Shown piece by piece: positions 14,162 to 60,335 of a stretch of DNA of 64,000 bases. The stretch spans positions 11,472 to 75,471 of the forward strand of contig DLLD01000004.1 in assembly GCA_002476605.1 (NCBI GenBank). The letters run 5' to 3'. Position 1 is the first letter of the stretch; each line of letters begins with the position of its first letter. The position numbers were made by a program, and so were the translations under genes. The notes beneath the pieces are model-generated. The model saw only the letters and a list, made by a program, of their open reading frames with translations, did no database searches and was not told the DNA's origin. The stretch comes from Christensenella sp. UBA7571 (GTDB taxonomy: Bacteria > Bacillota > Clostridia > Christensenellales > CAG-917).

Positions 14162-14683
14162 ATGAGCGAGTATAGATTGAAAGTGCCGTTTGACAAAGAC
14201 GAAATAAAATCACTAGTGGCGGGGGATAGAGTTTACCTCACAGGCAAGATTTTGACGGGTAGAGACGCCGCGCATAAACGACTTTTCGAGTGCGTAAAAA
14301 ATGGTGAGGCGTTTCCCGTAGATTTGAAAGGTCAAGCGATATATTACGTTGGTCCGTGTAGAAAGGACGGCAAAATCGTTTCGGCAGGACCGACTACATC
14401 TATGCGTATGGACGCGTTTGCGCCCGCGCTTTACGACGAGGGCGTGCTTGCCACAATCGGCAAAGGTGATAGAAGCAAGGACGTGTACGACGCAATCGTG
14501 AGAAACGGCGGCGTATATCTTGCAAGCGTAGGCGGTGCGGGCGCACTGTACGCGCAGTGCATAAAGAGCGCAAAAGTGCTTGCTTACGAGGACTTGGGAA
14601 CGGAAGCTATATACGAGTTTGAGGTTGAAAATATGCCGTGCATCGTGGCAATAGATTGTTTGGGACAAACAATCTATAAGTGA
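14162..14683 (+). CDS. Class I fumarate hydratase / tartrate dehydratase family, beta subunit
   Basis: ATG 14162 (MSEYRLKVPF...) follows GGTGA. LTGKILTGRDAAHKRL, GPTTSMRMD and GKGDRS are typical of the beta (FumA C-terminal) type. It starts 7 nt after the alpha stop. Confidence 0.88.
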   Translation: MSEYRLKVPFDKDEIKSLVAGDRVYLTGKILTGRDAAHKRLFECVKNGEAFPVDLKGQAIYYVGPCRKDGKIVSAGPTTSMRMDAFAPALYDEGVLATIGKGDRSKDVYDAIVRNGGVYLASVGGAGALYAQCIKSAKVLAYEDLGTEAIYEFEVENMPCIVAIDCLGQTIYK

Positions 14684-14785
14684 TATTTTTGGCTTGCGCC
14701 AAAAGTGATATTCTCGCTACGCGAGAGTGATATTTGCGCGTTGCGCAAGTGATATTCGCACTGCGTGCGAGTTTTGGAATATTCC
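14680..14785 (-). repeat. Hairpin-heptamer array 1 (4 units) plus GGAATATTCC palindrome
   Basis: On the plus strand, GTGATATT starts at 14680, 14705, 14727 and 14749. Each is followed by a perfect small hairpin (ttttggc-ttgc-gccaaaa, tctcgc-tac-gcgaga, ttgcgc-gtt-gcgcaa, tcgcac-tgc-gtgcga). GGAATATTCC lies at 14776-14785. The first GTGATATT overlaps the TGA stop of the fumarate hydratase beta gene. Confidence 0.85.
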
Positions 14786-14874: not shown

Positions 14875-15576
14875 TTAATCTTGGTTTTCTTGGGCGTCTG
14901 ACGGGGCGTTTTCTTGGATATTTTCGTCCGCTTCGGCTTCGGTAGGCTCGGTGTCGAAAGTGGCGTCGGAGGGCTCGACGGAGGTGGGGATAGAGGACGG
15001 TTTCTTGATTGCATCGACGATGGAAATAAACGTCTTGGGGCGTACCTTTTCAAGGCGCGCGGCGTATAGCGCAAGGCTTGCAATCAAGGTGGAAACTACC
15101 GCTTGAAGAACGTTCTTAGGCAAGGACGTAAGTGCGGACTCTATCGTGCCGTACATAAACGCTTTGCAGATGAAATATCCGCCCGCCATAAACAACGAGC
15201 AACCGAGGCAAGTGAGCACCGCAAACACGACTTTGAGTGCAAAGCGTTTTTTGTCGGGCGTTTCGACTTTGTCGTACCACTTGTAGATTGCTTGGAAAAC
15301 GAGACCCGCAACGAGACCTTCAACGGCTTTGATTACGAGCGTATAAAGCATAGTGGCGGGATAGGTGGTGAGGTCCGCCAAGAACGAGCCGAGTCCGCCC
15401 GCGATCATAGCGCTCAAAGGATTGAAGAGTGCACCGCAAATGAGAATTGCGCTGTCACCGATGTTGAAATTGAAGGCGGGGAACGGTATGCCGATAAGCG
15501 TGCATACGTAAACGATTGCCGTCATCATACCCGTGTAGGCGATGAATTTGATGGTGAAAACACTTTGTTTTTTCAT
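14875..15576 (-). CDS. ribU: ECF-transporter S component, riboflavin-type by riboswitch context, with acidic C-terminal tail
   Basis: Six hydrophobic segments and an S-component-like core (NIGDSAILICGALFNPLSAMIAGGLGSFLADL). An FMN riboswitch lies immediately upstream. The C-terminal ~45 aa are Pro/Glu/Asp-rich. The symbol is assigned from context, not from sequence identity. Confidence 0.72.
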   Translation of the reverse strand: MKKQSVFTIKFIAYTGMMTAIVYVCTLIGIPFPAFNFNIGDSAILICGALFNPLSAMIAGGLGSFLADLTTYPATMLYTLVIKAVEGLVAGLVFQAIYKWYDKVETPDKKRFALKVVFAVLTCLGCSLFMAGGYFICKAFMYGTIESALTSLPKNVLQAVVSTLIASLALYAARLEKVRPKTFISIVDAIKKPSSIPTSVEPSDATFDTEPTEAEADENIQENAPSDAQENQD

Positions 15577-15631
15577 AAAAAAATCTCCGTTTTTGGCGGA
15601 GAAGGATAAGTCGGCGCAATACGCCTTAAAA

Positions 15632-15758
15632 CTACTCCTTCCCAGTCTGACTTTACAGGCGGTTGCGGAATCTCACCGCATCGGCTGTTGGGGCTGTTGG
15701 ACTTGTCCGTTCAAGACGGCATTACCACCGGTTGGGATATACCCACCCAAAGAATAAT
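15632..15758 (-). promoter_or_regulatory. FMN riboswitch (RFN element)
   Basis: The minus strand reads TTCTTTGGGTGGGTATATCCCAACCGGTGGTAATGCCGTCTTGAACGGACAAGTCC...GATGCGGTGAGATTCCGCAACCGCCTGTAAAGTCAGACTGGGAAGGAG. This matches the conserved RFN blocks CCnACCGGCGGUA, GGUGnnAUUCC, CCGnCnGUnAAAGUCnG and GGGAAGGA. Downstream, the hairpin CTCCG-ccaaaaa-CGGAG plus a T-run contains the GGAG SD directly before the ATG at 15576. Confidence 0.82.
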
Positions 15759-15767
15759 TACAAGCAT

Positions 15768-15796
15768 ATTGTAGCGCGGTGCGGGCAACGTGTCAA
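15768..15796 (-). promoter_or_regulatory. Sigma-70-type promoter of the riboswitch-ribU unit
   Basis: On the minus strand: TTGACA (15796-15791), 17-nt spacer, TACAAT (15773-15768). This places +1 a few nt before the first riboswitch helix. Confidence 0.6.
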
Positions 15797-15875
15797 TGAC
15801 GAAATACGGAAAAATAATAGACAAAACGGCGAAAGTGTATGCTTGGAGTGGTATTTGCCTAGTGGCAAATTATAT

Positions 15876-15975
15876 TGCGACTTTGTCGCAGTGATATTCT
15901 CGCTATGCGAGAGTGATATTTTTTGCTTGTGCAAAAAGTGATATTTGCGCGTTGCGCAAGTTGTGGAGAATTTTA
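15876..15975 (-). repeat. Hairpin-heptamer array 2 (4 units) plus degenerate copy of the GGAATATTCCAC module
   Basis: On the plus strand: tgcgac-ttt-gtcgca, GTGATATT (15891), tctcgc-tat-gcgaga, GTGATATT (15913), ttttgc-ttgt-gcaaaa, GTGATATT (15938), ttgcgc-gtt-gcgcaa. Then GTTGTGGAGAATTTT, whose complement AAAATTCTCCACAAC resembles GGAATATTCCACAAC. Confidence 0.85.
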
Positions 15976-15984
15976 TATTTTGCA

Positions 15985-16012
15985 ATAAAAAACGCGCCGT
16001 AGCGCGTTTTGG
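15985..16012 (-). terminator. Intrinsic terminator of the DUF4364-like gene
   Basis: The minus strand reads AACGCGC-tacg-GCGCGTT followed by TTTTTTATT. Confidence 0.6.
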
Positions 16013-16021
16013 GCTTGTCGA

Positions 16022-16567
16022 TTATTCAAGCAAATTGTCGTAAATGATAGAATACGTCGTTGACGCCTTGTCAACCCAACTCTTGTAGAGATATTTGGCA
16101 AGTTGACGGTTGGCAACCACAAGTTTGAGTTCCATAAGAGTGGTGATATCGTTGTTGATGCGCATAATCACCGTGTACGTGCCGTCGGCATTTTTGGAAT
16201 AATCGCAAAAATACGATTGGCGTTTTTTGAAACGCATACGATTTTCACGAGCGTATTGCACGATTTCGTCACGGATAGAAGACGGAATACGAGTGAAGAA
16301 CAACGACAAGCAACTTACGCCGTCTTGGGTGATGTTGAGCATTTCGCTTTTTGGCACGCGATAGACGAGGTTGGCGTCGAGAAGCTCGGCAAGATATTGC
16401 TTGCACTCCATATACGAAAGCCAATTGTTGTCGGACGAGCAAATGTCCAAAAGGGTGGACTCGGCAAGCGGAATTGCCATTTTATCGAATACGAAAAGAA
16501 TAACAAGTTTTTGCACCTTGCTATCAAGCGGTTGATTCGAGCCGAAAGTGTCTTGAACGTATTCCAT
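16022..16567 (-). CDS. DUF4364-like protein
   Basis: ATG 16567 (MEYVQDTFG...) follows AGAGGGGA. Length of ~180 aa and the pattern KLVILFVFDKMAIPLAESTLLDI...YMECKQYLAELLDANLVY resemble the Clostridia DUF4364 family as I recall it. Confidence 0.6.
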   Translation of the reverse strand: MEYVQDTFGSNQPLDSKVQKLVILFVFDKMAIPLAESTLLDICSSDNNWLSYMECKQYLAELLDANLVYRVPKSEMLNITQDGVSCLSLFFTRIPSSIRDEIVQYARENRMRFKKRQSYFCDYSKNADGTYTVIMRINNDITTLMELKLVVANRQLAKYLYKSWVDKASTTYSIIYDNLLE

Positions 16568-16786
16568 ATCCCCTCTTGCGACAAGAATTGTCGTCAAATA
16601 AAAGCAATGCGGTTGCGTTTATCAATAGTACAACGAAAGATTGCCGTTTTCAAGTGTAAAAATAAAAATTTTGTCGAAATACAATTTATGGTATGCGGTG
16701 AAAGAAGCGGGCACAAGTGAGATGCGCCTACGGCTGAATTGCCACGTCGCAACGATGTTGCTCCTCGCAATGACATAAGGTGAAAT

Positions 16787-16960
16787 GGAATAATTTACAA
16801 CTGCGCCCAAGGCGCACAACCAAGCAAGCGATATAGCGAAACTGTGGCAAGATTTTTATCCAATTCATACCAAACAGACAATCTTGCGAAATCGCAAAAA
16901 GATTATTTATCTTTGCTTGAACTGATAGCAAAGATTGGCTGTGCGGTAGTAGTTGCGAGA
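16787..16960 (+). repeat. Intergenic module D, copy 1 (degenerate GGAATA-TT-ACA + TGCGCC hairpin + CAACCAAGCAAGCGATATAGCGAAACTGTGGC ... GGCTGTGCGGTAGTAG)
   Basis: Aligns by eye with 46849-46970. Shared blocks are the TGCGCC-nnn-GGCGCA hairpin, CCAAGCAAGCGATAT(A/G)GCGAAA(C/T)TGTGGC, GATAGC and G(C/T)TG(T/C)GCGGTAGTAG. Copy 1 carries an extra ~50 nt containing the hairpin ATCTTTGCT-tgaactgat-AGCAAAGAT. Confidence 0.7.
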
Positions 16961-17106
16961 ACAAATGCGGTTTATGGTAATAAATGCGCTTGTTGCCATC
17001 ACCGCAATGAAGTTTGAGCAACTGGTTGCGCGGTAGAAATTTCGAGGACAAATGCGGTGATCGGCAACAAATATCGTTTGTTGTCGTGACCGCAATGCCG
17101 TTTGAG
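16937..17106 (+). repeat. Tandem ~85-nt direct repeat (2 copies) immediately upstream of the giant-protein promoter
   Basis: Copy 1 is ~16937-17020 (GGCTGTGCGGTAGTAGTTGCGAGAACAAATGCGGT...CACCGCAATGAAGTTTGAG). Copy 2 is ~17024-17106 (GGTTGCGCGGTAGAAATTTCGAGGACAAATGCGGT...GACCGCAATGCCGTTTGAG). Roughly three quarters of positions are identical by eye. Confidence 0.75.
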
Positions 17107-17115
17107 AAATATGTA

Positions 17116-27737: not shown

Positions 27738-27778
27738 AATATTCCAAAATTATTAATTATTAATTATTAATTATTAAT
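27738..27778. repeat. AATATTCCAAAA half-palindrome followed by (TATTAAT)x4 heptamer microsatellite
   Basis: TATTAAT repeats exactly four times at 27751-27778. The same composition, in the opposite orientation, lies at 46811-46858 next to GGAATATTCC. Confidence 0.8.
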
Positions 27779-27840
27779 TCACCTCTCCGTGAGTTTTCGC
27801 TTAAAAAACTTTTAATACACACTTCTTCGACATTTTGGAC

Positions 27841-28685: not shown

Positions 28686-28696
28686 TAATTTTCTTT

Positions 28697-28947
28697 GCGC
28701 CGAGTGCTAAACACGTGTCACTTATCTCTACGAGATAACTTGACACATATTTAGGCGCAAACGTCCTGCACAAAAGCAATCGGAGCATTGCTTTTGTGCG
28801 TAAGGTCTCACAACCTTGAGACGGCTCGGCGGTTGCTCGGATAGAAAGTTGATGCTCACAATTAGTCTTCGTGGAGTTATAAACTACGGCTCCGCCTGTC
28901 TACGAGCGTCGTTAGGCGCAATAAATTGCGCTAATGGAATATTCCAC
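28697..28947 (+). repeat. ~250-nt multi-hairpin intergenic element, copy A
   Basis: Near-identical to 59965-60216, with about 15 differences including a 1-nt indel by manual alignment. It contains the hairpins GTGTCAcTTATCTC-tac-GAGATAAcTTGACAC, GCACAAAAGCAAT-cggagc-ATTGCTTTTGTGC and GTCTCA-caacct-TGAGAC, and ends in GGAATATTCC (28936-28945). Confidence 0.9.
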
Positions 28948-28950
28948 ATC

Positions 28951-29087
28951 TGCGCCTACGGCGCAATATCCACTTTTAGCCATAGGCTAAGAATATCACT
29001 TGTGCGTAGCACAAATATCACTGCACCGTAGGTGCAATATCACTCTCGCGAAGCGAGAATATCACTGCGACGAAGTCGCATATCAGT
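28951..29087 (+). repeat. Hairpin-heptamer array 3 (6 units), ending exactly at the ntpI start codon
   Basis: The units are tgcgcc-tac-ggcgca ATATCCAC, tagcc-ata-ggcta..ATATCAC, ttgtgc-gta-gcacaa ATATCAC, tgcacc-gta-ggtgca ATATCAC, tctcgc-gaa-gcgaga ATATCAC and tgcgac-gaa-gtcgca TATCAGT. The last four units start at 29000, 29022, 29044 and 29066, an exact 22-nt phase. Confidence 0.9.
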
Positions 29088-31669
<2,582 letters not shown>

Positions 31670-42412: not shown

Positions 42413-44839
42413 ATGGTCAAACTCGCGTTTAGAAACATACTGTCAAAGCCGTTGCGCTCAATAGCCACGATACTTGCTATCGCGGTGGTGGTCGCAATGA
42501 CTTTTTGTATGATTTCCTTTAAGGGCGCGGTGTACGATTATATCTACGCAACGGAAACGTCGGCGGTGGGCAGTGCGGATATCGTCATATCCACGGACAG
42601 CAGTAGCGACCGTATCACCAAAGCCGAACCGCTCAAAGCCTTGCAAGAGGCAAAAGACGTCGTTGCCACGCTCAAACTTTACGCAACTTTCGGCGACGAG
42701 TACGTTATGGTGCGCGGTTTCGAGGCAAGTCAAATAGAGACGTTGCAAACGATAAACGCCGTAAGCGGTGAGATATCCTCACTCAAAGAGGGGCGCAACG
42801 ACGACAACGTCGTAATATCCGAGGCGTGCGCAAAGCACTTCGGACTAAACGTCGGAGATATGTTCAAACTGTCCCTCGGACAAAGACAAACGACGTGCTA
42901 CGTCGGAGCAATCGCAAAAGGGGACGGATATTTTTTGAGCGACGCGCCCTATCAAATCATCGGTACGTCGAGCAATTTTTCAAAACTCATAACGAGTTCG
43001 GTCACGGTCAATCTTTGCAACGAGATTTACCTCACTGTCAAAGACGGCGTGAGCGTGGATGAAGTTATGCAAAAAATCCGCGCAATGGACGAGTATAAGG
43101 ACTTGCTCGTAAAAGAGGCAAAAGACGCTGCCTACGTCAACGAGCAGACGCAAAGTCTCACCGCGCCCGTAGTGCTTGCGGGCGGTGCGGTATTTTTGCT
43201 CGGCATTGCCATTATCGTAATCTTGTTCGTTATGAGCGAGGGTGAGAAAGTTGCGCTCATCGCAAAACTCAAAATCGTCGGTGCAACCAAACGCCAACTA
43301 GTCGGAATATTCCTCATAGAAAGCGTAATTTTGTCAATGCTCGGTACGCTTATAGGCTCGGCACTTGCGGTGGGTACGTTCGTTGCGATACTCAAAATCA
43401 CGCTTACGAGCGCGACGGTGTTCAATATCTCCGTGCAATATCTTTTCGTGGCGGGTATCGTCGGATTTTTCACTGCGATACTTGCGTCTCTTGCACCCGT
43501 TCTTCAAGCGTTCAAGGGCACTATTCGCGACAATCAATTGGACATCAAAGAGACGAACAAACGTCAATATATACTGCCGATAGCCTTAATTTTGCTCACT
43601 GTCGTGAGCGTGATTATAGAATTTACGGTGGAAAGCGTGACGGGCGCAATGGCAATCGTAAGCCTCATTCTTGCAATGCTTGCGCTTGCTTCGAGCGCGT
43701 CTCCGCTTATGAAAATTTGTGCAAAAGTCTGCAAAAAATCGAGCGCGCCGTCTATGAAAGTGGCAAGCCTCGATATGACGAGAGAGAAACGTTTTATGCG
43801 CTCGTCAACGCTCCTTACGACGGGTATGACCATTGCAATGACCTTGTTTATGGCGTGGTCGCTCACCACGAGCGTGTTTACCTCGTACGTCAATCAGTTC
43901 GGGGATATGGCGTTCGTCACCAACGTCAGAGAAAGCGTCGTCGCCAATGAGTTCAAGCAAACGGACGGTGTGAAAGACGCCACCAAAATGGTTTGGGGAC
44001 AAGGTGAAATCCTTGTCCAAGGCAAAGAAAAGACTATGAATATTCTCGGCTCGGAGGATATTCTCGATATGGTAGATTTTGAGTACGTTACGCCCAAAGA
44101 GACGGTTTACACGCGCATTTCGGAAGATAAACCATACGTTTTCGTCGATATAGCACTTCAAAAGCTGTACGGCATCAAAGAGGGAGACGTGCTTGAAATG
44201 TCGTTCGGAAAAGAGAGCGGACAAGTGATTGTGGGCGGTGTGCTCAAACACGAATTGTTCAGCGGAAACTATATCGTCACGTCCGCAAAGACTATGGAGG
44301 ACGTATTCGGCAAAAAGGTGGATACTGTGCTCGTAGTGTCCGACGGAAACGTGCAAAAGTGCGTGGAAGCGTTGCGTGCACGGTACGCCGTCAACAACTA
44401 TTACGTTATATCCGCGCTCGACGCGTACAAGTGGGATATGGAAAGTATGAACGCCGTGTTCGACCTCATCGGCACGCTTGCGGTGGTGGTTGCGCTGTTC
44501 ATATTTGCCGTGACCGTGGCAACCGCGCTTATCGGCAGAGGCGTGTCCAAGCAATCGAGAGTGGCACTCTTAAACGCAGGTATGTCCAAGAATACGCTTC
44601 TCAAAACCGAGATTTTGGAACACGCGATAATTGCGCTCGTGGCTTTTTGCGCGTCCTTCGCCGTGTCGGTGTTGCTTGCCTCTTGCCTTATCCACGCGCT
44701 TCGCTTGTTCGGAATGTACTTTGAGTTTATGTATAGGGCGTGGGTGGTTGCCGTGGTCGGTATCGCTATGGGCGCGGGGTATACGCTTATACCGCTTGTG
44801 CTCAACTTCAAAAAAGGTTATACTGTCAAAAAGGGTTGA
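42413..44839 (+). CDS. FtsX/MacB-type ABC permease with two FtsX modules (808 aa)
   Basis: N-terminus MVKLAFRNILSKPLRSIATILAIAVVVAM. Two clusters of 3-4 TM helices are separated by large extracytoplasmic domains. It starts 2 nt after the ATPase stop. Confidence 0.86.
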   Translation: MVKLAFRNILSKPLRSIATILAIAVVVAMTFCMISFKGAVYDYIYATETSAVGSADIVISTDSSSDRITKAEPLKALQEAKDVVATLKLYATFGDEYVMVRGFEASQIETLQTINAVSGEISSLKEGRNDDNVVISEACAKHFGLNVGDMFKLSLGQRQTTCYVGAIAKGDGYFLSDAPYQIIGTSSNFSKLITSSVTVNLCNEIYLTVKDGVSVDEVMQKIRAMDEYKDLLVKEAKDAAYVNEQTQSLTAPVVLAGGAVFLLGIAIIVILFVMSEGEKVALIAKLKIVGATKRQLVGIFLIESVILSMLGTLIGSALAVGTFVAILKITLTSATVFNISVQYLFVAGIVGFFTAILASLAPVLQAFKGTIRDNQLDIKETNKRQYILPIALILLTVVSVIIEFTVESVTGAMAIVSLILAMLALASSASPLMKICAKVCKKSSAPSMKVASLDMTREKRFMRSSTLLTTGMTIAMTLFMAWSLTTSVFTSYVNQFGDMAFVTNVRESVVANEFKQTDGVKDATKMVWGQGEILVQGKEKTMNILGSEDILDMVDFEYVTPKETVYTRISEDKPYVFVDIALQKLYGIKEGDVLEMSFGKESGQVIVGGVLKHELFSGNYIVTSAKTMEDVFGKKVDTVLVVSDGNVQKCVEALRARYAVNNYYVISALDAYKWDMESMNAVFDLIGTLAVVVALFIFAVTVATALIGRGVSKQSRVALLNAGMSKNTLLKTEILEHAIIALVAFCASFAVSVLLASCLIHALRLFGMYFEFMYRAWVVAVVGIAMGAGYTLIPLVLNFKKGYTVKKG

Positions 44840-44841
44840 TT

Positions 44842-46629
44842 ATGAAAAACAAACTGAAAATAGTGTCCGTAATTCTCGCTTTGGTGCTCGCGCTGTGCGT
44901 GTGTCTCGTTGCGTGCAACAAAACTAAAACCGATCCCGCAAAAGAGCGCGCCGACGCGGTGGCGTCCGTTGAAAACGCGTTTATGAGCGGTGTGGTTGAC
45001 GGTTGGACCAATTCGCTTGACGAGCAAAGCCTCAAAGGCAGAGACGATGCGGGTGACTATATAGTTACGCTTGGTTGGACGAAGATGATTTGCTCGGTGG
45101 TGAGCGAGTCCGACTTGCAGACGGCAAAAATCAAGTCGCTTGCAACCGCGTTATCCTCTCAAAACGGCAAGACGTTGCTCGGTGACTTTGAAAAGAATGC
45201 GGAATTGCTTATCCCGCTCCTCAAAGAGGTTGGCTTCACCCCCAGCGACGTGTCCGCAATCGTGTACGATTTGACTTGCGCGATGGTGTCCAAGGGATAC
45301 AAGACTATTTGCGACGTGTATAACGAGCTTATCGACCTCGAACAGTATATGCGCCAAAACGCAATCTCGGGCAAACCGCTCGACAACGTCGTGAAAAACA
45401 GACTTTCTATAAGCATTGCAAAGAGCGATTTCGTGACGACGGACACCGAGAAGTCGCAAATGCTCACCGCTTTTTCAAACGCAAGGAACGCGCTCGGTAG
45501 GCTCGTATCGTTTGCGTATAATATGTCCGTCAACGCAATCACGGACGACTTGTACGGCAAGCTTTTTGACGACAGCGGTGCGCTCGGTGAAATCACGGAC
45601 GGTGAAATCGCAACGCTCGTCGATACGCTTTTGCTCAACGTGCAAGACCTCAAAGACGCGCTCAATCAAAACGAAGTGAGTGCGCTCAACTCCGCGCTCG
45701 ACCTCGTTATAGACAAATTCGACAAAAAAACGGTGTCTTCGGCAATCTACGCGCAAATCGTCAAATACGCCAAATACGCCTATATGGTCGTGGACGTTAT
45801 TCCGACTATTTGCGACGTCGTGACGTCAAGCGGAAACTTGCTCTCGTCCGAGGACTTTATCAAAGACTTTCTCTCGGTGGCGCAAAACGGTGACAATCTC
45901 GATACCGCCACAAACCGCATAAATCAATCCATTCTTGTATCGAGGGCAATACTCAATCTCACGAGCGAGGGCGGTTACGACGAGCAAAAACTCTTGAATA
46001 TCGTTGACGAAATCGTCAGCGCAAATACGGGTGAGTATCAAAAGGCAGTCCCGCTTTTCACGCTCGATTTGGCGTTCAACTTCTCGTCGCTCTACGACTC
46101 CGTGACGGGTGACGACGATACGGACTTGTGGGAAGTGGTGCACTCGGGCGTTATGACGCAAGACGCGCTTTCGACGCAAGTGTCGCTGGTGTTCTTCTTC
46201 GACGGCGGATTTGACAACTTCAAAGAAACTTATTATAGCTACACGAGAGGCGACGCAACGCAAGCGCAACTTCGCAGTGCGCTTGACAGATGCTCGTTTG
46301 GCAGTTTCATCGAGAACGGGCGCATTTTCAGAACGGACGAACTCTATACGTCGGATTGGTACGACTACTACGTGACTATCGGGCTCAACGCCGTCAACCA
46401 AAAGGTGTCAAACGTCCTCAAAAACAACGTGTCACACGATATCAAAGCGTTCGTCGGTGACTACTTTGCGGAAAATTCAGAAATGAAAGAGGCTATCCAA
46501 ACGCTTGCTCAAATGAGTATTCTCACGCAAAACGCAAGCGAAGAGGAAATCAACGGCACGTATATTCCGCTTTTGTCCAAGAGCAGAGTGCTGGGCGCAA
46601 CGATTTTGTTTATGTTGCAAGCCGATTGA
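44842..46629 (+). CDS. Large (595 aa) predicted lipoprotein, helical, unknown function
   Basis: ATG 44842 (MKNKLKIVSVILALVLALCVCLVAC-N) gives a lipobox. It starts 3 nt after the permease stop. The sequence is rich in L/A/D/K/S and I recognise no family motif. Confidence 0.7.
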   Translation: MKNKLKIVSVILALVLALCVCLVACNKTKTDPAKERADAVASVENAFMSGVVDGWTNSLDEQSLKGRDDAGDYIVTLGWTKMICSVVSESDLQTAKIKSLATALSSQNGKTLLGDFEKNAELLIPLLKEVGFTPSDVSAIVYDLTCAMVSKGYKTICDVYNELIDLEQYMRQNAISGKPLDNVVKNRLSISIAKSDFVTTDTEKSQMLTAFSNARNALGRLVSFAYNMSVNAITDDLYGKLFDDSGALGEITDGEIATLVDTLLLNVQDLKDALNQNEVSALNSALDLVIDKFDKKTVSSAIYAQIVKYAKYAYMVVDVIPTICDVVTSSGNLLSSEDFIKDFLSVAQNGDNLDTATNRINQSILVSRAILNLTSEGGYDEQKLLNIVDEIVSANTGEYQKAVPLFTLDLAFNFSSLYDSVTGDDDTDLWEVVHSGVMTQDALSTQVSLVFFFDGGFDNFKETYYSYTRGDATQAQLRSALDRCSFGSFIENGRIFRTDELYTSDWYDYYVTIGLNAVNQKVSNVLKNNVSHDIKAFVGDYFAENSEMKEAIQTLAQMSILTQNASEEEINGTYIPLLSKSRVLGATILFMLQAD

Positions 46630-46779
46630 CAAAACGGGCAATATATCGTAAAATAAACTTGAAATCAGAAACGATGTGAAAGCGTCTCAAATCGGAGTGG
46701 CGGTGCTACCAAAACGATGAGCAAGCGGGCGCAATCGATACGGAGTGTAAGACGACATAATAATATAGGTGCATTACGT

Positions 46780-46814
46780 TTGCGCCGTCGTTTTACGCGA
46801 CGGCGCAATTTTTT
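46780..46814 (+). terminator. Intrinsic terminator of the ABC-lipoprotein operon
   Basis: TTGCGCCGTCG-ttttacg-CGACGGCGCAA-TTTTTT. Perfect 11-bp stem. Confidence 0.8.
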
Positions 46815-46848
46815 AATTAATAATTAAAAATTAATAATTAATAATTGC

Positions 46849-46970
46849 GGAATATTCCACAAACAAATGCGCCGAAGGCGCGCACACCAAGCAAGCGATA
46901 TGGCGAAATTGTGGCGGGAATATCAATCCTTCTATGATTGATAGCGTGTATCGGTTGCGCGGTAGTAGAG
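46849..46970 (+). repeat. Intergenic module D, copy 2 (GGAATATTCCAC + TGCGCC hairpin + CCAAGCAAGCGATATGGCGAAATTGTGGC ... GGTTGCGCGGTAGTAG)
   Basis: See 16787-16960. It begins with the perfect palindrome GGAATATTCC (46849-46858), which is preceded by a TAAT-rich tract (46811-46846). Confidence 0.7.
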
Positions 46971-47039
46971 CAATAAGACTAGCGTGGCACTAGACAATGA
47001 ACTTGTGAGTTGTCTTTGACACAGCGACGACTTTTGCGG

Positions 47040-47112
47040 TTATCACTTGCGCGTAGCGCAAATATCACTGTTGCATAGCAACAATATCACTCTCGCTATG
47101 CGAGAATATGAG
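47040..47112 (+). repeat. Hairpin-heptamer array 4 (3 units) running into the SD of the next gene
   Basis: TTATCAC, ttgcgc-gta-gcgcaa ATATCAC, tgttgc-ata-gcaaca ATATCAC, tctcgc-tat-gcgaga ATATGAGG. Hairpins start at 47047, 47069 and 47091 (22-nt phase). The last heptamer is replaced by ATATGAGG, which supplies the GAGG SD for ATG 47122. Confidence 0.9.
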
Positions 47113-57205: not shown

Positions 57206-58207
57206 ATGGAAGAACAAAAACAAAAAATCGTATATAGCGCATTGAAACCGACGGGTGATTTGCAACTGGGCAACTACATCGGCGCGCTCAAAAATATGGT
57301 CAAACTCCAAGACGAGTATAAGTGCATTTACACGGTTGCCGATATGCACGCAATCACGGTGGACAACGTCCCCGCGGACTTGCGCCGTCGCACTTACGAC
57401 TTTATGGCAATATTCCTTGCAATAGGTCTCGATCCCGAGAAGACGACGTTGTTCGTGCAATCGCAAGTGCCCGAGCACGCGGAGCTTGCTTGGGTGCTCA
57501 ACTGCAACACTCAATTCGGTGAAGCAAGCAGAATGACGCAGTTCAAGGAAAAGAGTCAAAAAGCACCCGAAAACGTCAACCTCGGCTTGTTCACTTATCC
57601 CACGCTTATGGCAGCGGACATCTTGCTTTATCAAGCGGACTACGTTCCCATCGGCAAGGACCAAAAGCAACATCTCGAACTTGCAAGAGATATCGCTCAA
57701 CGCTTCAACTCCAAGTATTCTCCGACGTTCGTCATTCCCGACGGAATATTCCCGACGATCGGCGCAAAGATATACAATCTTCTCGATCCCACCACCAAGA
57801 TGGGCAAGACTGACGACAACACCAACGGAGTTATCCACCTTCTCGACGATCCGGACACCGTTATGCGCAAATTTAAGAGGGCGGTCACGGACTGCGGAGA
57901 CGCAATCGTTATGGCGGAGGACAAGCCCGGTATAAGCAACCTTATCACGATATATTCCGTCATTACGGATACGCCTATCGACAAGGTGCAAGATATCTTT
58001 GCGGGCACGTCTTACGCGGACTTCAAAACCAAAGTCGGTGAAGCGGTGGTCGAATATTTGCGCCCAATTCAAGAGAAGCACGCCTACTATATGCAACACA
58101 AGGATTACCTTGAAGAGATTATGCGAAACGGCGCGCAAGAGGCACAAAGAATTGCAAGAAAGACACTTTCCAAAGTGTATAGAAAAGTCGGTTTCGTGCA
58201 AGCATAA
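57206..58207 (+). CDS. trpS: Tryptophan--tRNA ligase
   Basis: ATG 57206 (MEEQKQKIVYSALKPTGDLQLGNYIG...). GKDQKQHLELARDIAQRFN and the KMGKT (KMSKS-type) loop. The listed start 57176 is a GTG extension. Confidence 0.95.
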   Translation: MEEQKQKIVYSALKPTGDLQLGNYIGALKNMVKLQDEYKCIYTVADMHAITVDNVPADLRRRTYDFMAIFLAIGLDPEKTTLFVQSQVPEHAELAWVLNCNTQFGEASRMTQFKEKSQKAPENVNLGLFTYPTLMAADILLYQADYVPIGKDQKQHLELARDIAQRFNSKYSPTFVIPDGIFPTIGAKIYNLLDPTTKMGKTDDNTNGVIHLLDDPDTVMRKFKRAVTDCGDAIVMAEDKPGISNLITIYSVITDTPIDKVQDIFAGTSYADFKTKVGEAVVEYLRPIQEKHAYYMQHKDYLEEIMRNGAQEAQRIARKTLSKVYRKVGFVQA

Positions 58208-59942: not shown

Positions 59943-59964
59943 ATCTAAACGCTGTTGCTGATTT

Positions 59965-60216
59965 GCGCCGAATGCTAAACACGTGTCACTTATCTCTACG
60001 AGATAACTTGACACATATTTAGGCGCAAACGTCCTACACAAAAGCAATCGGAGCATTGCTTTTGTGCGTAAGGTCTCACAACCTTGAGACGGCTCGGCGG
60101 TTGCTCGGATAGAAAGTTGATGCTCACAAAGATTTCTTCGTGGAGTTATAAACTACTGCTCCGCCTATCTACGAGCAACGTTAGGCGCAATAAATTGCAC
60201 TGACGGAATATTCCAT
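59965..60216 (+). repeat. ~250-nt multi-hairpin intergenic element, copy B
   Basis: See 28697-28947. Same orientation, same three hairpins, and it ends in GGAATATTCC (60205-60214). Confidence 0.9.
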
Positions 60217-60313
60217 ATTTGTTGTGCTTTATTGAAATGATAATATGGAAAATTAGATTTATATAACTATAAAAAATAAATAAAACAAAAGCAAAACAAG
60301 TAAACACAATGTT

Positions 60314-60335
60314 TCTCACGACGTGAGAATAACAC
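60314..60335 (+). repeat. Single hairpin-heptamer unit directly upstream of the potA SD
   Basis: tctcac-gac-gtgaga ATAACAC, then GAGGTTATATACTATG. Compare array 4: tctcgc-tat-gcgaga ATAT-GAGGTTAATTCTATG. Confidence 0.7.

Follow-up and report, generated by a model that had tools for sequence, protein, structure and literature searches.

Tandem hairpin arrays joined by an ATATCAC linker: a probable module of a mosaic extragenic repeat family of gut Clostridia that includes Gut-1

Arrays and their gene context

The stretch of DNA analysed here (the window, 64 kb of Christensenella sp. UBA7571) contains ~19 short units of the form T-N4-C, 3-4-nt loop, G-N4-A, followed by ATATCAC. These units lie at five intergenic loci, beside ribU, fumC, a DUF4364 gene, ntpI, a TM1266-like gene and the gene of an ABC-transporter ATPase. 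The loci, and the palindrome that recurs near them, are as follows, with each unit written as stem and loop in window coordinates.

14680-14770, minus strand: array 1, units TCGCAC-gca, TTGCGC-aac, TCTCGC-gta and TTTTGGC-gcaa, with ATATCAC after each
14776-14785: palindrome GGAATATTCC (12-bp form TGGAATATTCCA), directly 5' of array 1
15848-15959, minus strand: array 2, following the terminator of the DUF4364 gene; five units, TTGCGC-aac, TTTTTGC-acaa, TCTCGC-ata, TGCGAC-aaa (linker ATATAAT) and TTGCC-acta (linker ATACCAC)
28936-28945: palindrome GGAATATTCC, joining a ~260-nt repeat module (28694-28952) to array 3
28951-29087, plus strand: array 3, ending at the ntpI ATG (29088); six units, CTGCGCC-tac (linker ATATCCAC), TTTTAGCC-ata, TTGTGC-gta, TGCACC-gta, TCTCGC-gaa and TGCGAC-gaa (linker TATCAG)
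46849-46858: palindrome GGAATATTCC, 190 nt upstream of array 4
47036-47112, plus strand: array 4, a degenerate linker GGTTATCAC, then TTGCGC-gta, TGTTGC-ata and TCTCGC-tat
60205-60214: palindrome GGAATATTCC, 109 nt upstream of the single unit
60314-60335, plus strand: single unit TCTCAC-gac-GTGAGA, with linker ATAACAC

Array 1 lies between the convergent genes ribU (-) and fumC (+), and hence is not upstream of any gene; the fumC stop codon TGA (14681-14683) falls within its last linker, and the palindrome next to this array comes immediately 3' of the terminator of ribU (14844-14800). For array 2, the ribU promoter (15796-15768) and FMN riboswitch (15759-15630) both lie on its downstream side. 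The last linker of array 4 is replaced by ATAT-GAGG, which forms the Shine-Dalgarno sequence of the TM1266-like gene (ATG 47122), and the single unit is followed by GAGG and the ATG (60349) of the ABC-transporter ATPase gene. The preliminary description had placed the last unit at three loci against the start of the next gene; this holds at the ntpI ATG and at the GAGG of the 47122 and 60349 genes. Hence at three of the five window loci the repeat directly borders a ribosome-binding site or start codon, and a local function could lie behind this.

The palindrome, or a degenerate copy of it, had likewise been described as preceding every array. It is directly adjacent at 14776 and 28936, but is separated from array 4 and the single unit by the distances given above and is degenerate near array 2. 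The copy near array 4 comes after a terminator (46780-46808) and a (TAATTAA)n run, with other repeat modules next to it, and the copy near the single unit stands at the end of a second copy of the 260-nt module.

Unit structure and phasing

The tandem "short hairpin + AATATCAC" units are confirmed. Perfect units, defined by a 6-bp stem, a 3-4-nt loop and exact ATATCAC, number 10 in the window, against a mean of 0.01 and a maximum of 1 in 100 dinucleotide shuffles. The sequence AATATCAC itself occurs 15 times, compared with 1.6 expected (0 of 100 shuffles reach 15), and 13 of the 15 copies lie inside the four arrays.

The units were found at the positions reported in the preliminary description, and array 2 in addition reaches 15848 through one extra unit (TTGCC-acta-GGCAA-ATACCAC). 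The strict 22-nt phase and the 6-bp stem with 3-nt loop proposed at the same time require some revision. Exact 22-nt phasing is present only at 28992-29087 and 47047-47112; arrays 1 and 2 include 25-nt units, in which the stem is 7 bp and the loop 4 nt long. Over at least 118 related loci, periods of 20 to 26 occur, the commonest value being 22 bp, or about two helical turns. The sharing of stems was borne out, with TCTCGC in 4/4 arrays, TTGCGC in three and TGCGAC in two, and identical stems reappear across arrays and genomes in differing order and with differing loops.

Hairpin pairing and strand bias

When units were defined solely by their two flanking linkers, inner Watson-Crick pairs were 5/5 in 128 of 152 units among the matches listed. 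Paired cells amounted to 96.9%, compared with 60.9% in shuffles and 29-44% in slid controls, and 243 cells carried changes on both sides. The closing pair is C-G in 93% and the first pair T-A in 90% of units among the matches listed. ATATCAC, or GTGATAT as read from the opposite strand, forms the unpaired flank in 319 of the 374 units listed. The hairpin pairing is strongly supported. In each unit a short hairpin stands on an invariant T-A pair, closes a G..A-type loop with a C-G pair and leaves four inner pairs free to vary; the invariant single-stranded linker ATATCAC joins it to the next unit.

Loops on the ATATCAC strand are of the G..A type 211 times and of the T..C type twice among the 381 units in the matches listed, and the hairpin is shown to be selected on this strand alone. 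Tetraloops follow G-N-N-A rather than strictly GNRA (50 GNRA vs 32 GNYA, counted by hand in the matches listed). The commonest hairpin core is GC-GNA-GC, a very stable DNA mini-hairpin. The fold z-scores of array 3 are -5.4 as RNA and -6.0 as DNA. Throughout the window the ATATCAC strand is the sense strand of the upstream gene, all five loci (5/5) running in that gene's direction.

Relation to the Gut-1 RNA

The Rfam search suggested in the preliminary description matched RF01706 (Gut-1; gathering score 50 bits) to array 3 with 55.7 bits (28988-29067, minus strand) and to array 1 with 51.8 bits (14678-14760, plus strand). Array 4 scored 39.8 bits, below threshold, and neither array 2 nor the single unit gave a match to the RF01706 covariance model. 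Since two arrays exceed the gathering score, the motif is already described, albeit without a function: it is not new, and the catalogued Gut-1 is one arm of this repeat family. The alignment of array 3 spans positions 1-77 of the Gut-1 model, which consists of three tandem hairpins, and both above-threshold matches lie on the strand opposite to the family orientation used in the preliminary description.

Gut-1 was introduced as a non-cis-regulatory RNA found in human gut sequence only, scored as likely RNA and given no function (Weinberg 2010, PMC2864571), and Rfam assigns RF01706 the type "Gene; sRNA". Nothing beyond that paper was found in a literature search for the linker sequence or "Gut-1 RNA". 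Tandem short hairpins, freely covarying stems and a conserved 7-8-nt linker are common to Gut-1 and the window arrays, although the linker consensus is GUGAAAU in the model and GUGAUAUU in the window arrays, including the aligned part of array 3. The published seed, drawn from the composite elements of gut Clostridia MAGs found here, represents the inverted partner arm within a composite of ~200 nt present in many such MAGs, and its alignment carries the ATATCAC arm in an unmodelled flank. Whereas the model describes the "left" arm after a terminator, the window arrays correspond to the unmodelled ATATCAC arm, and therefore match the Gut-1 model only in reverse.

In the seed context, CAGUUAUAUUCGCC opens the arm after the terminator, and beyond this arm come GGCGAAUAUAAU and the inverted arm. 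The flanking centre is GGCGAATATAAT in the Gut-1 composites but GGAATATTCC in the window arrays, which have neither an inverted partner arm nor the Gut-1 flanking motifs; the GGCGAATA[ATG]AAT centre has 0 copies in the window. One relative (L124) has both arms around GGAATATTCG, and in the composite relatives the two inverted arms run outward from a palindromic centre and do not share their stems. The paper's human-gut-only Gut-1 is encountered here as a multi-copy, strain-variable repeat in named MAG lineages, and the loop bias indicates the strand opposite to that of Gut-1. The apparent UUCG loops of the Gut-1 arm do not give the two arms a single RNA sense: these loops are really C(TTC)G, which reads C(GAA)G on the complementary strand, and each arm therefore has G..A loops on its own ATATCAC strand. 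A ladder of left and right linkers held by long-range pairing was also rejected, as the RNA fold of the composite gives only a GUUAUAUUCGCC/GGCGAAUAUAAU helix, which never varies and hence cannot be tested by covariation, and local hairpins.

In 32 of 49 cases the composites carry promoter-like signals, namely TTGAAA/TTGAAG at -35 and TGaTATTNT after a spacer of 16-17 nt, and the flanking terminator reads in the strand opposite to Rfam's in 31 of 56. Given such promoter- and terminator-like signals, some members of the family may be genuine small-RNA genes. The 16-17-nt spacing is given by the 25-nt first unit of composites alone; within 22-nt arrays only 14 nt separate a -35-like TTGNNN from the TGaTATT that comes after it, too few for a promoter. 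Integration linked to tRNA genes was considered as well: a tRNA or tmRNA gene precedes several composites, but this is true of a minority.

Dispersal and turnover among relatives

The genome scan returned at least 118 loci, nearly all in gut Clostridia MAGs (Acutalibacteraceae, Oscillospiraceae and relatives) with GC contents of 32-56%, several MAGs holding 2-3 loci each among the matches listed. The ATATCAC linker is kept across these families of Clostridia, and this invariance of a 7-nt linker at 32-56% GC points to a conserved trans-acting partner. Further repeat modules are common to the window loci and the related MAGs. Contigs frequently end at arrays.

Array 3 together with its 260-nt module was found to be an insertion between orf111 and ntpI, without counterpart in four related species; the orf111-ntpI gap is 403 nt in the window and 10-80 nt in the relatives (NtpI identity 89, 76, 74 and 67%). 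Contigs of the same species (NtpI 97%) have flanks that are 93-95% identical, whereas the ntpI array is 71% identical and 5 of its 6 units differ. Other same-species contigs carry a wholly different insert upstream of ntpI, so that this region exists in three versions within one species. In a same-species contig, sequence to the left of the palindrome at 28936-28945 is 94% identical, and the array on its right differs. No target-site duplication was visible at the compared ntpI sites. For array 4, the three contigs found were each 100% identical to the window and are therefore uninformative on strain variation.

Relatives at 67-89% protein identity have ntpI and ribU flanks without arrays; the ribU flanks (82-85% identity) hold other modules instead. 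Among relatives, ribU and the DUF4364 gene each occur in reversed orientation at an unchanged position. These comparisons show that, within intergenic DNA, the elements appear, disappear, exchange single units and recombine with further modules far faster than the flanking genes change, and that the palindrome (T)GGAATATTCC(A) is the junction at which modules join. The arrays are thus fast-changing, and are not conserved regulators of the neighbouring genes.

Gene linkage, orientation and possible partners

The genes next to arrays are functionally unrelated. Among the matches listed, 123 array-adjacent ORFs fall in 96 Pfam families, with one recurrent neighbour, 23S_rRNA_IVP, at 5 loci. An all-against-all clustering of 669 ORFs from the at least 118 loci, combined with Pfam assignment of the 123 neighbours, yielded housekeeping families only and no linked protein. 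In agreement with the earlier remark that the window shows no REP-associated transposase, a Pfam scan of its ~38 larger ORFs found no transposase or RAYT, and none was found among the 123 array-adjacent ORFs.

With respect to the downstream gene, the family orientation in the matches listed is 43 same to 43 opposite, and with respect to the upstream gene it is 56 to 26 (p = 0.001), statistics that are noisy because ORF calls at MAG loci are crude, with known miscalls visible. Orientation by replication strand was rejected, since GC skew keeps the same sign across window arrays of both orientations. As to a phage or plasmid origin, BLAST of the array sequence gave no match in plasmid or phage records, and a two-linker pattern gave 4 chance matches in IMG/VR, none with hairpins.

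Comparison with known repeat and array classes

The units, at 20-26 nt, resemble REPs (20-40-bp palindromes) in being extragenic and present in many copies. Like REP, BIME and REPIN elements, they occur singly or in arrays, in either orientation and in mosaics with other motifs, are mostly downstream of genes, probably transcribed and strain-variable, and bear a conserved unpaired tag beside the hairpin. REP super-families have an unpaired GTAG or CGTC tag at the palindrome end (Di Nocera 2013, PMC3733652). Neither tag is present at the arrays, where the unpaired flank is ATATCAC. Stems also set the two apart: a REP family has one stem sequence, whereas the array stems are diverse, 5-7 bp long and perfectly paired, varying far more than in classical REPs. 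A REPIN consists of two inverted REPs forming one long hairpin, but the window arrays are one-directional. REP and REPIN elements reportedly occur with RAYT transposases, as Bertels and Rainey are said to have described in 2011; REPs have a cognate single-copy RAYT, an IS200/IS605-type tyrosine transposase often flanked by the repeats, and none was seen among the ~38 larger window ORFs and the 123 array-adjacent ORFs.

BOX elements of Streptococcus pneumoniae are modular and intergenic, with a variable number of tandem subunits that form stable RNA structures near genes. Their subunits are ~45-60 nt long and conserved in sequence, and are not different mini-hairpins with a common linker.

The mosaic character of BIMEs and NIMEs is shared by the arrays, in which modules stand in varying order and differ between strains at one site. 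NIMEs are formed by dRS3 repeats flanking RS elements (Bentley 2007, PMC1797815). As in NIMEs, numerous variable segments take turns with a short conserved element and other repeat types are mixed in, strains differ at syntenic sites in how long an array is and what it contains, and site-specific recombination has been proposed to act on both. However, dRS3 is a 20-bp inverted repeat, ATTCCC-N8-GGGAAT, a motif not present at the arrays, and RS elements are 50-150 bp long, whereas the arrays combine a conserved 7-nt unpaired linker with a variable 13-18-nt hairpin. The host phylum of NIMEs is different, and their link to a phage recombinase is not known for arrays.

Several other classes were set aside. 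A CRISPR array would show identical ~23-50-nt repeats and unique spacers about as long as the repeats; the conserved part here is only 7-9 nt and the variable 13-18-nt hairpins are reused in other arrays, in line with the earlier dismissal of this class. Intrinsic terminators had also been dismissed, correctly, as each hairpin is followed on the gene-sense strand by AAUAUCAC with no U-tract; weak terminator-like matches occur on the opposite strand where ATATT follows a hairpin. DnaA boxes, parS half-sites and IHF sites show partial resemblance, with the wrong spacing and with the palindromic spacers unexplained.

Weighing the explanations

What are these arrays? Among the three roles offered in the preliminary description, the REP/BIME-like one fits best: the arrays are dispersed, mosaic and strain-variable, missing at orthologous sites and unlinked to gene function. 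On balance, they are probably one module of a dispersed mosaic family of extragenic repeats in uncultured gut Clostridia, with Gut-1 as one arm and a generic effect. The arrays would be transcribed within neighbouring mRNAs, in the leader, intercistronic or 3' region, and would there form successive stable mini-hairpins on whichever strand is locally sense. The effect may then be that of an exonuclease barrier and processing site, as proposed for REP/BIME, rather than dedicated regulation of the adjacent gene, and the invariant linker may serve as the recognition or cleavage site of a putative trans factor that spreads or shuffles the units.

The turnover data also bear on an unlikely proposal, namely that the 20-26-nt "hairpin + linker" is the substrate of a strand-specific enzyme, HUH/RAYT-like or other, which cuts the linker and moves units, with GGAATATTCC as entry or junction. 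This would accord with the reuse of stems in other orders and with other loops, the replacement of single units between strains with conserved flanks, the breakpoint exactly at the palindrome, the 211:2 strand-specific loop bias, the G-N-N-A tetraloops and the GC-GNA-GC core, and the inversions of ribU and of the DUF4364 gene at their own sites; RAYTs, moreover, take as substrate hairpins that carry a conserved unpaired tag. No candidate enzyme is encoded in the window or beside the 123 arrays, however, the tag is neither GTAG nor CGTC, the window arrays track gene direction and not the replication strand, and ordinary ectopic gene conversion could account for the unit swaps. Recombination of this kind, cutting the linker, shuffling mini-hairpin cassettes between arrays, joining modules at (T)GGAATATTCC(A) and driving rapid intergenic turnover and single-gene inversion in a large clade of uncultured gut Clostridia, is a tentative candidate. 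A cis-acting RNA device in 5' leaders, in which a hairpin stack and a AAUAUCAC multivalent pad stabilise the mRNA or control translation downstream, is rather improbable. The abutment of last units on a start codon or Shine-Dalgarno sequence at 29088, 47122 and 60349, with the hairpin strand as sense strand at all three, the stable G..A-type loops on the ATATCAC strand and the fold z-score of -5.4 argue for it. Yet the array is missing upstream of ntpI in four related species and replaced by unrelated sequence within one species, array 1 occupies a convergent-gene site, ribU already has its own control downstream of array 2 in a promoter and FMN riboswitch, orientation to the downstream gene is even (43:43 in the matches listed), and the downstream genes are functionally unrelated. 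The 5'-UTR stabiliser stack of the preliminary description is not general for the same reasons of position and orientation; the third role offered there, a landing pad for an RNA- or ssDNA-binding protein, would be a candidate explanation of the invariant linker.

Two further alternatives were weighed. The linkers could form an array of double-stranded DNA sites with incidental palindromic spacers, either TATCACT heptads bound by an omega-like ribbon-helix-helix protein or GGAATATTCC and the first unit acting as an extended -10; this is very doubtful. TATCACT fits the omega heptad consensus WATCACW, the commonest period of 22 bp is close to two helical turns, the arms diverge from a palindromic centre, and 32 of 49 composites have the -35, 16-17-nt spacer and TGaTATTNT. 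The period nevertheless varies over 20-26 bp, so that the sites are not kept on one helix face, and the compensatory pairing of the spacers and the 211:2 loop strand bias are left unexplained. Omega of pSM19035 is said to need contiguous heptads. An omega operator or parS (at least two contiguous WATCACW) was rejected, the sequence fitting but the copies lying 20-26 nt apart; known omega sites are contiguous heptads on plasmids, whereas 13-18-nt palindromes intervene between these chromosomal heptads. As for GGAATATTCC as a possible extended -10 (TGGAATATT), the hexamer agrees at 4/6 positions, and the sigma-70 scan flagged neither it nor any promoter at the window palindromes. Least probable for the window arrays is a free-standing gene for a trans-acting small RNA, as the Rfam typing of Gut-1 and its scoring as likely RNA (Weinberg 2010) would have it. 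On the strand opposite to Rfam's, the composites do have a good promoter (32/49) and a terminator (31/56), with a predicted RNA of ~125 nt. The window arrays, in contrast, have no sigma-70-type promoter upstream or terminator downstream on the hairpin strand, three window units or arrays run directly into coding genes, unit number and identity vary between strains, and copy number is high.

Implications for Gut-1 and its hosts

The mosaic extragenic repeat that we favour would place these elements with REP, BIME and NIME repeats, like which they act: assemblies break at them, and local rearrangements accompany them. In the window, the arrays are recent, strain-variable insertions at V-ATPase, hydrogenase-regulator and ABC-transporter genes, and make no case for a new regulatory RNA of these genes. 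Gut-1, which has stood in Rfam since 2010 as an orphan "sRNA" from human gut sequence, is now placed in named MAG lineages. What its model describes is a single arm of a larger modular repeat, and the strand-specific loop signal lies on the opposite strand.

Hairpin arrays in the window

Units composed of a hairpin (T-N4-C, 3-nt loop, G-N4-A) and the linker ATATCAC had been claimed for five loci, and are present at all five. These loci and the elements around array 2 are:

14680-14770 (-), array 1, between the convergent fumarase C-terminal subunit gene fumC (+) and ribU (-)
15576-14875 (-), ribU, riboflavin ECF S-component gene, with its own terminator at 14844-14800
15602-15584 (-), terminator with the FMN riboswitch leader
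15630-15759 (-), FMN riboswitch (64.6 bits, E = 9e-15; 1.6 bits below the Rfam gathering score)
15796-15768 (-), ribU promoter, near-consensus TTGACA-17-TACAAT
15848-15959 (-), array 2, 3' of the DUF4364 gene terminator and upstream of the ribU promoter and FMN riboswitch
28951-29087 (+), array 3, inside an operon, with orf111 on one side and ntpI on the other
47036-47112 (+), array 4, abutting a Shine-Dalgarno sequence
60314-60335 (+), single unit, likewise abutting a Shine-Dalgarno sequence

The sequence AATATCAC occurs 15 times in the window versus 1.6 copies expected, a count reached in none of 100 shuffles, and 13 of the 15 copies sit within the four arrays. Perfect units, defined by a 6-bp stem without mismatch, a 3-4-nt loop and exact ATATCAC, number 10, compared with a mean of 0.01 and a maximum of 1 in 100 dinucleotide-preserving shuffles. 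The arrays are a genuine, statistically solid feature. The recurrence of the stems TCTCGC, TTGCGC and TGCGAC, reported in the preliminary description, was borne out by the unit listing. Only arrays 3 and 4 keep an exact 22-nt register; arrays 1 and 2 contain 25-nt units (7-bp stems, 4-nt loops), and array 2 extends further than first described, its fifth, degenerate unit running to 15848. The 10-nt palindrome GGAATATTCC, said to precede each array in intact or degenerate form, directly adjoins arrays at 14776 and 28936 but not elsewhere.

Array 1 is not 5' of any gene: fumC ends at 14683, and its TGA falls within the last linker. No family match was found for a 151-aa ORF on the minus strand, antisense to fumC. 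Judged from sequence, ribU is already controlled by the predicted promoter at 15796-15768 and the FMN riboswitch, downstream of array 2; this riboswitch leader is kept in every relative examined, and its score just below the threshold explains its absence from the default Rfam matches. At ntpI (29088), no Shine-Dalgarno sequence is present in the window, nor in at least three of four related species (a weak GAGAAG precedes one copy), so array 3 did not displace a ribosome-binding site. Separately, 46626-46808, upstream of a TM1266-like gene, carries a near-consensus promoter (TTGACA-17-TAAAAT) and, ~125 nt on, a strong intrinsic terminator; this stretch has no Rfam match and looks like an attenuator-type leader or small RNA.

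The direction of the upstream gene is common to all five loci. GC skew of the + strand is positive over ~8-56 kb, spanning most arrays of both orientations, and near zero at the single unit (60.3 kb), just outside this stretch. Since the sign of the skew is constant across both array orientations, orientation follows transcription, not replication. Across the family, crude ORF calls with known errors gave 56 arrays in the same and 26 in the opposite orientation to the upstream gene (p = 0.001), versus 43 and 43 for the downstream gene.

Relation to Gut-1 and distribution of the family

The Rfam check proposed in the preliminary description, run on the whole window at curated thresholds, matched an already described family, Gut-1 (RF01706). 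Just two matches were returned, at 28988-29067 (55.7 bits) and 14678-14760 (51.8 bits), both on the strand opposite to the family orientation first assigned; array 4 scored 39.8 bits, the gathering score being 50. Two window arrays thus qualify as members by Rfam's own score, but do not share the flanking architecture of the seed. The model comprises three hairpins with GUGAAAU linkers, and the window linker is GUGAUAUU. Gut-1 originates from Weinberg et al. (2010; PMC2864571), where a one-sentence description classed it as a likely RNA, non-cis-regulatory and seen in human gut sequence only. The window feature is an instance of this catalogued motif.

One scan of GTDB species genomes, with two linkers 22 nt apart as the query, matched at least 118 loci. 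Among the loci listed, nearly all are in gut MAGs labelled Acutalibacteraceae, Oscillospiraceae, Eubacteriales or Clostridia (GC 32-56%), and about half contain a composite element of roughly 200 nt. Its order is a gene or tRNA with terminator, the Gut-1 arm (CAGTTATATTCGCC, then 3-4 hairpins with GTGATATT linkers), a centre (GGCGAATA(T/G/A)AATATCAC) and a second arm with almost always exactly four ATATCAC linkers and hairpins such as TGAAACC-gyaa-GGTTTCA. The published Gut-1 seed alignment corresponds to the first arm, and the ATATCAC arm can be seen in the flank that the model leaves out. The window arrays are of this other type, which explains the reverse-strand matches. Arrays of the window lineage mostly lack an inverted partner arm, with GGAATATTCC in place of the centre; in one relative (L124), both arms are present, flanking GGAATATTCG. 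The element was not found in phage and plasmid collections. Well-formed units with ATATCAC and ATTTCAC linkers were also seen in MAG contigs labelled Akkermansia/Akkermansiaceae (L004:475-524 and L024:258-307); either the contigs are mis-binned or the family spans more than one phylum.

Hairpin constraint and strand

Pairing was tested on units defined solely by their two flanking linkers, as a guard against circularity. All five inner positions were Watson-Crick paired in 128 of 152 units, and four in another 17. In 102 distinct units, 96.9% of cells were paired, versus 60.9% in column shuffles and 29-44% with slid partners; both sides had changed in 243 cells, and the covariation score was 0.90 versus 0.18. 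C-G closes the loop in 93% of units, and T-A forms the foot of the stem in 90%. On the ATATCAC strand, loops have G...A ends in 211 of 381 cases and T...C ends in 2 of 381. This asymmetry indicates that selection acts on the hairpin of one strand, which rules out a symmetric cruciform and a plain double-stranded DNA site; the linker is invariant. Tetraloops follow G-N-N-A, not strictly GNRA (about 50 GNRA versus 32 GNYA, counted by hand), a mixture that does not point to an RNA-specific loop. GC-GNA-GC, the core seen most often, is a very stable DNA mini-hairpin, which counts as weak evidence only, and the hairpin row is predicted by both RNA (z -5.4) and DNA folding (z -6.0).

On the strand opposite to the Rfam annotation, 32 of 49 composites have a good promoter (-35 TTGAAA/TTGAAG, 16-17-nt spacer, TGaTATTNT; for example L007:7395-7600, L006:1560-1725 and L027), with the family's most conserved hairpin supplying the -35. 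The terminator adjoining the Gut-1 arm points in this same direction in 31 of 56. From these signals, the Gut-1 arm may be transcribed in the ATATCAC sense as an RNA of ~125 nt, in agreement with the loop bias; if so, the Rfam strand of Gut-1 is reversed. Such promoter and terminator signals were not found at the window arrays.

Turnover and associated repeat modules

The order giant protein, rpiB, orf110, ntpI and remaining operon is kept in relatives with 89, 76, 74 and 67% NtpI identity, in which the gap before ntpI is array-free and 10-80 nt long, versus 403 nt in the window. This region exists in three states among same-species contigs (NtpI 97% identical), one of them that of the window. 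In L126 and L129, the 260-nt module and palindrome are kept and five of six hairpin units differ; in L127, L128, L130 and L131, the array is absent and a wholly different insert precedes ntpI. Compared with the window, L126 has 93-95% identity in the flanks but just 71% in the array, the divergence starting at the palindrome. Its array start resembles that of window array 1 (GGAATATTCC-aaaac-TCGCAC...), a likeness suggestive of exchange between loci. Around ribU, relatives at 82-85% identity retain promoter, riboswitch and terminator and have other repeat modules instead of arrays. Many contigs break off at array sites, as expected of dispersed repeats. The arrays are insertions with rapid turnover, by units and by modules, the palindrome being the junction.

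Comparison of window 14875-16597 with close relatives (L132, L134, L136) shows in-place inversion of ribU, its riboswitch and terminator included, and likewise of the neighbouring DUF4364 gene, giving three configurations in three genomes. The gene order malic enzyme, fumarase, ribU, DUF4364, giant protein is unchanged, and the intergenic DNA flanking the inverted genes is repeat-rich.

Other modules adjoin the arrays and are common to related MAGs. A ~260-nt repeat without Rfam match (28694-28952 and 59962-60221; also in contigs L093, L126 and L129) contains nested hairpins, and each of its two copies terminates in GGAATATTCC; the repeat search divided it into blocks of 168 nt (99% identical) and 87 nt (90%). 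Further intergenic modules (16735-17110 and 46866-47037; also in L035, L127, L132 and L134) include a 30-nt block ACCAAGCAAGCGATATRGCGAAAYTGTGGC, an 87-nt tandem repeat (16936-17106) and an 'attgccacg...ctcgcaatgacataagg' block, in varied combinations before varied genes, related species included. Mutually inverted (AATTATT)n/(TAATTAA)n runs at 27748-27779 and 46814-46846 each directly adjoin a GGAATATTCC-like site, and similar AT-rich runs border other modules in L127, L132 and L134. Six exact GGAATATTCC copies were found, versus about 0.1 expected in 64 kb by our own estimate; two are intragenic (43304-43313 and 57743-57752), in genes for an FtsX/MacB-type permease and a class I tRNA synthetase. 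The palindrome may be enriched genome-wide for a cause separate from the arrays.

What are the arrays?

The arrays are a modular repeat, occurring in many copies and restricted to intergenic DNA, and their presence is independent of neighbour-gene function: the ORFs closest to 123 arrays belong to 96 Pfam families that share no functional theme. The sole recurrent Pfam family beside arrays is 23S_rRNA_IVP, at five loci; these genes, encoding small four-helix-bundle proteins, lie ~50 nt from arrays in five unrelated MAGs (including L016, L066 and L108). The window arrays are none of a CRISPR array, a terminator or an omega-type operator.

A repeat-element reading is favoured at slightly better than even. 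The hairpin strand is the sense strand in the window, and there is no room for a promoter downstream of three arrays; the arrays would therefore be transcribed inside neighbouring mRNAs, folding into rows of mini-hairpins, with generic effects of the kind proposed for REP and BIME elements (PMC3733652). The arrays work like REP/BIME/REPIN elements but lack their defining GTAG/CGTC tag, and resemble NIMEs (PMC1797815) in alternating conserved and variable parts and strain-level dynamics, but differ in motifs. The linker would be recognised by some conserved factor, be it an RNA- or ssDNA-binding protein or an enzyme responsible for spreading or shuffling the units. An enzyme-driven cassette specifically is improbable: no transposase is among the 25 most frequent Pfam families near the 123 arrays, and the earlier view that the window lacks a REP-associated transposase holds, Pfam scans of about 38 window ORFs having found housekeeping genes only. 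The likeliest reading is that the arrays are an intergenic repeat, selfish or structurally generic, rather than a new regulatory device; what remains of interest is the invariant linker, the shuffling at the level of units and a Gut-1 annotation that is probably wrong.
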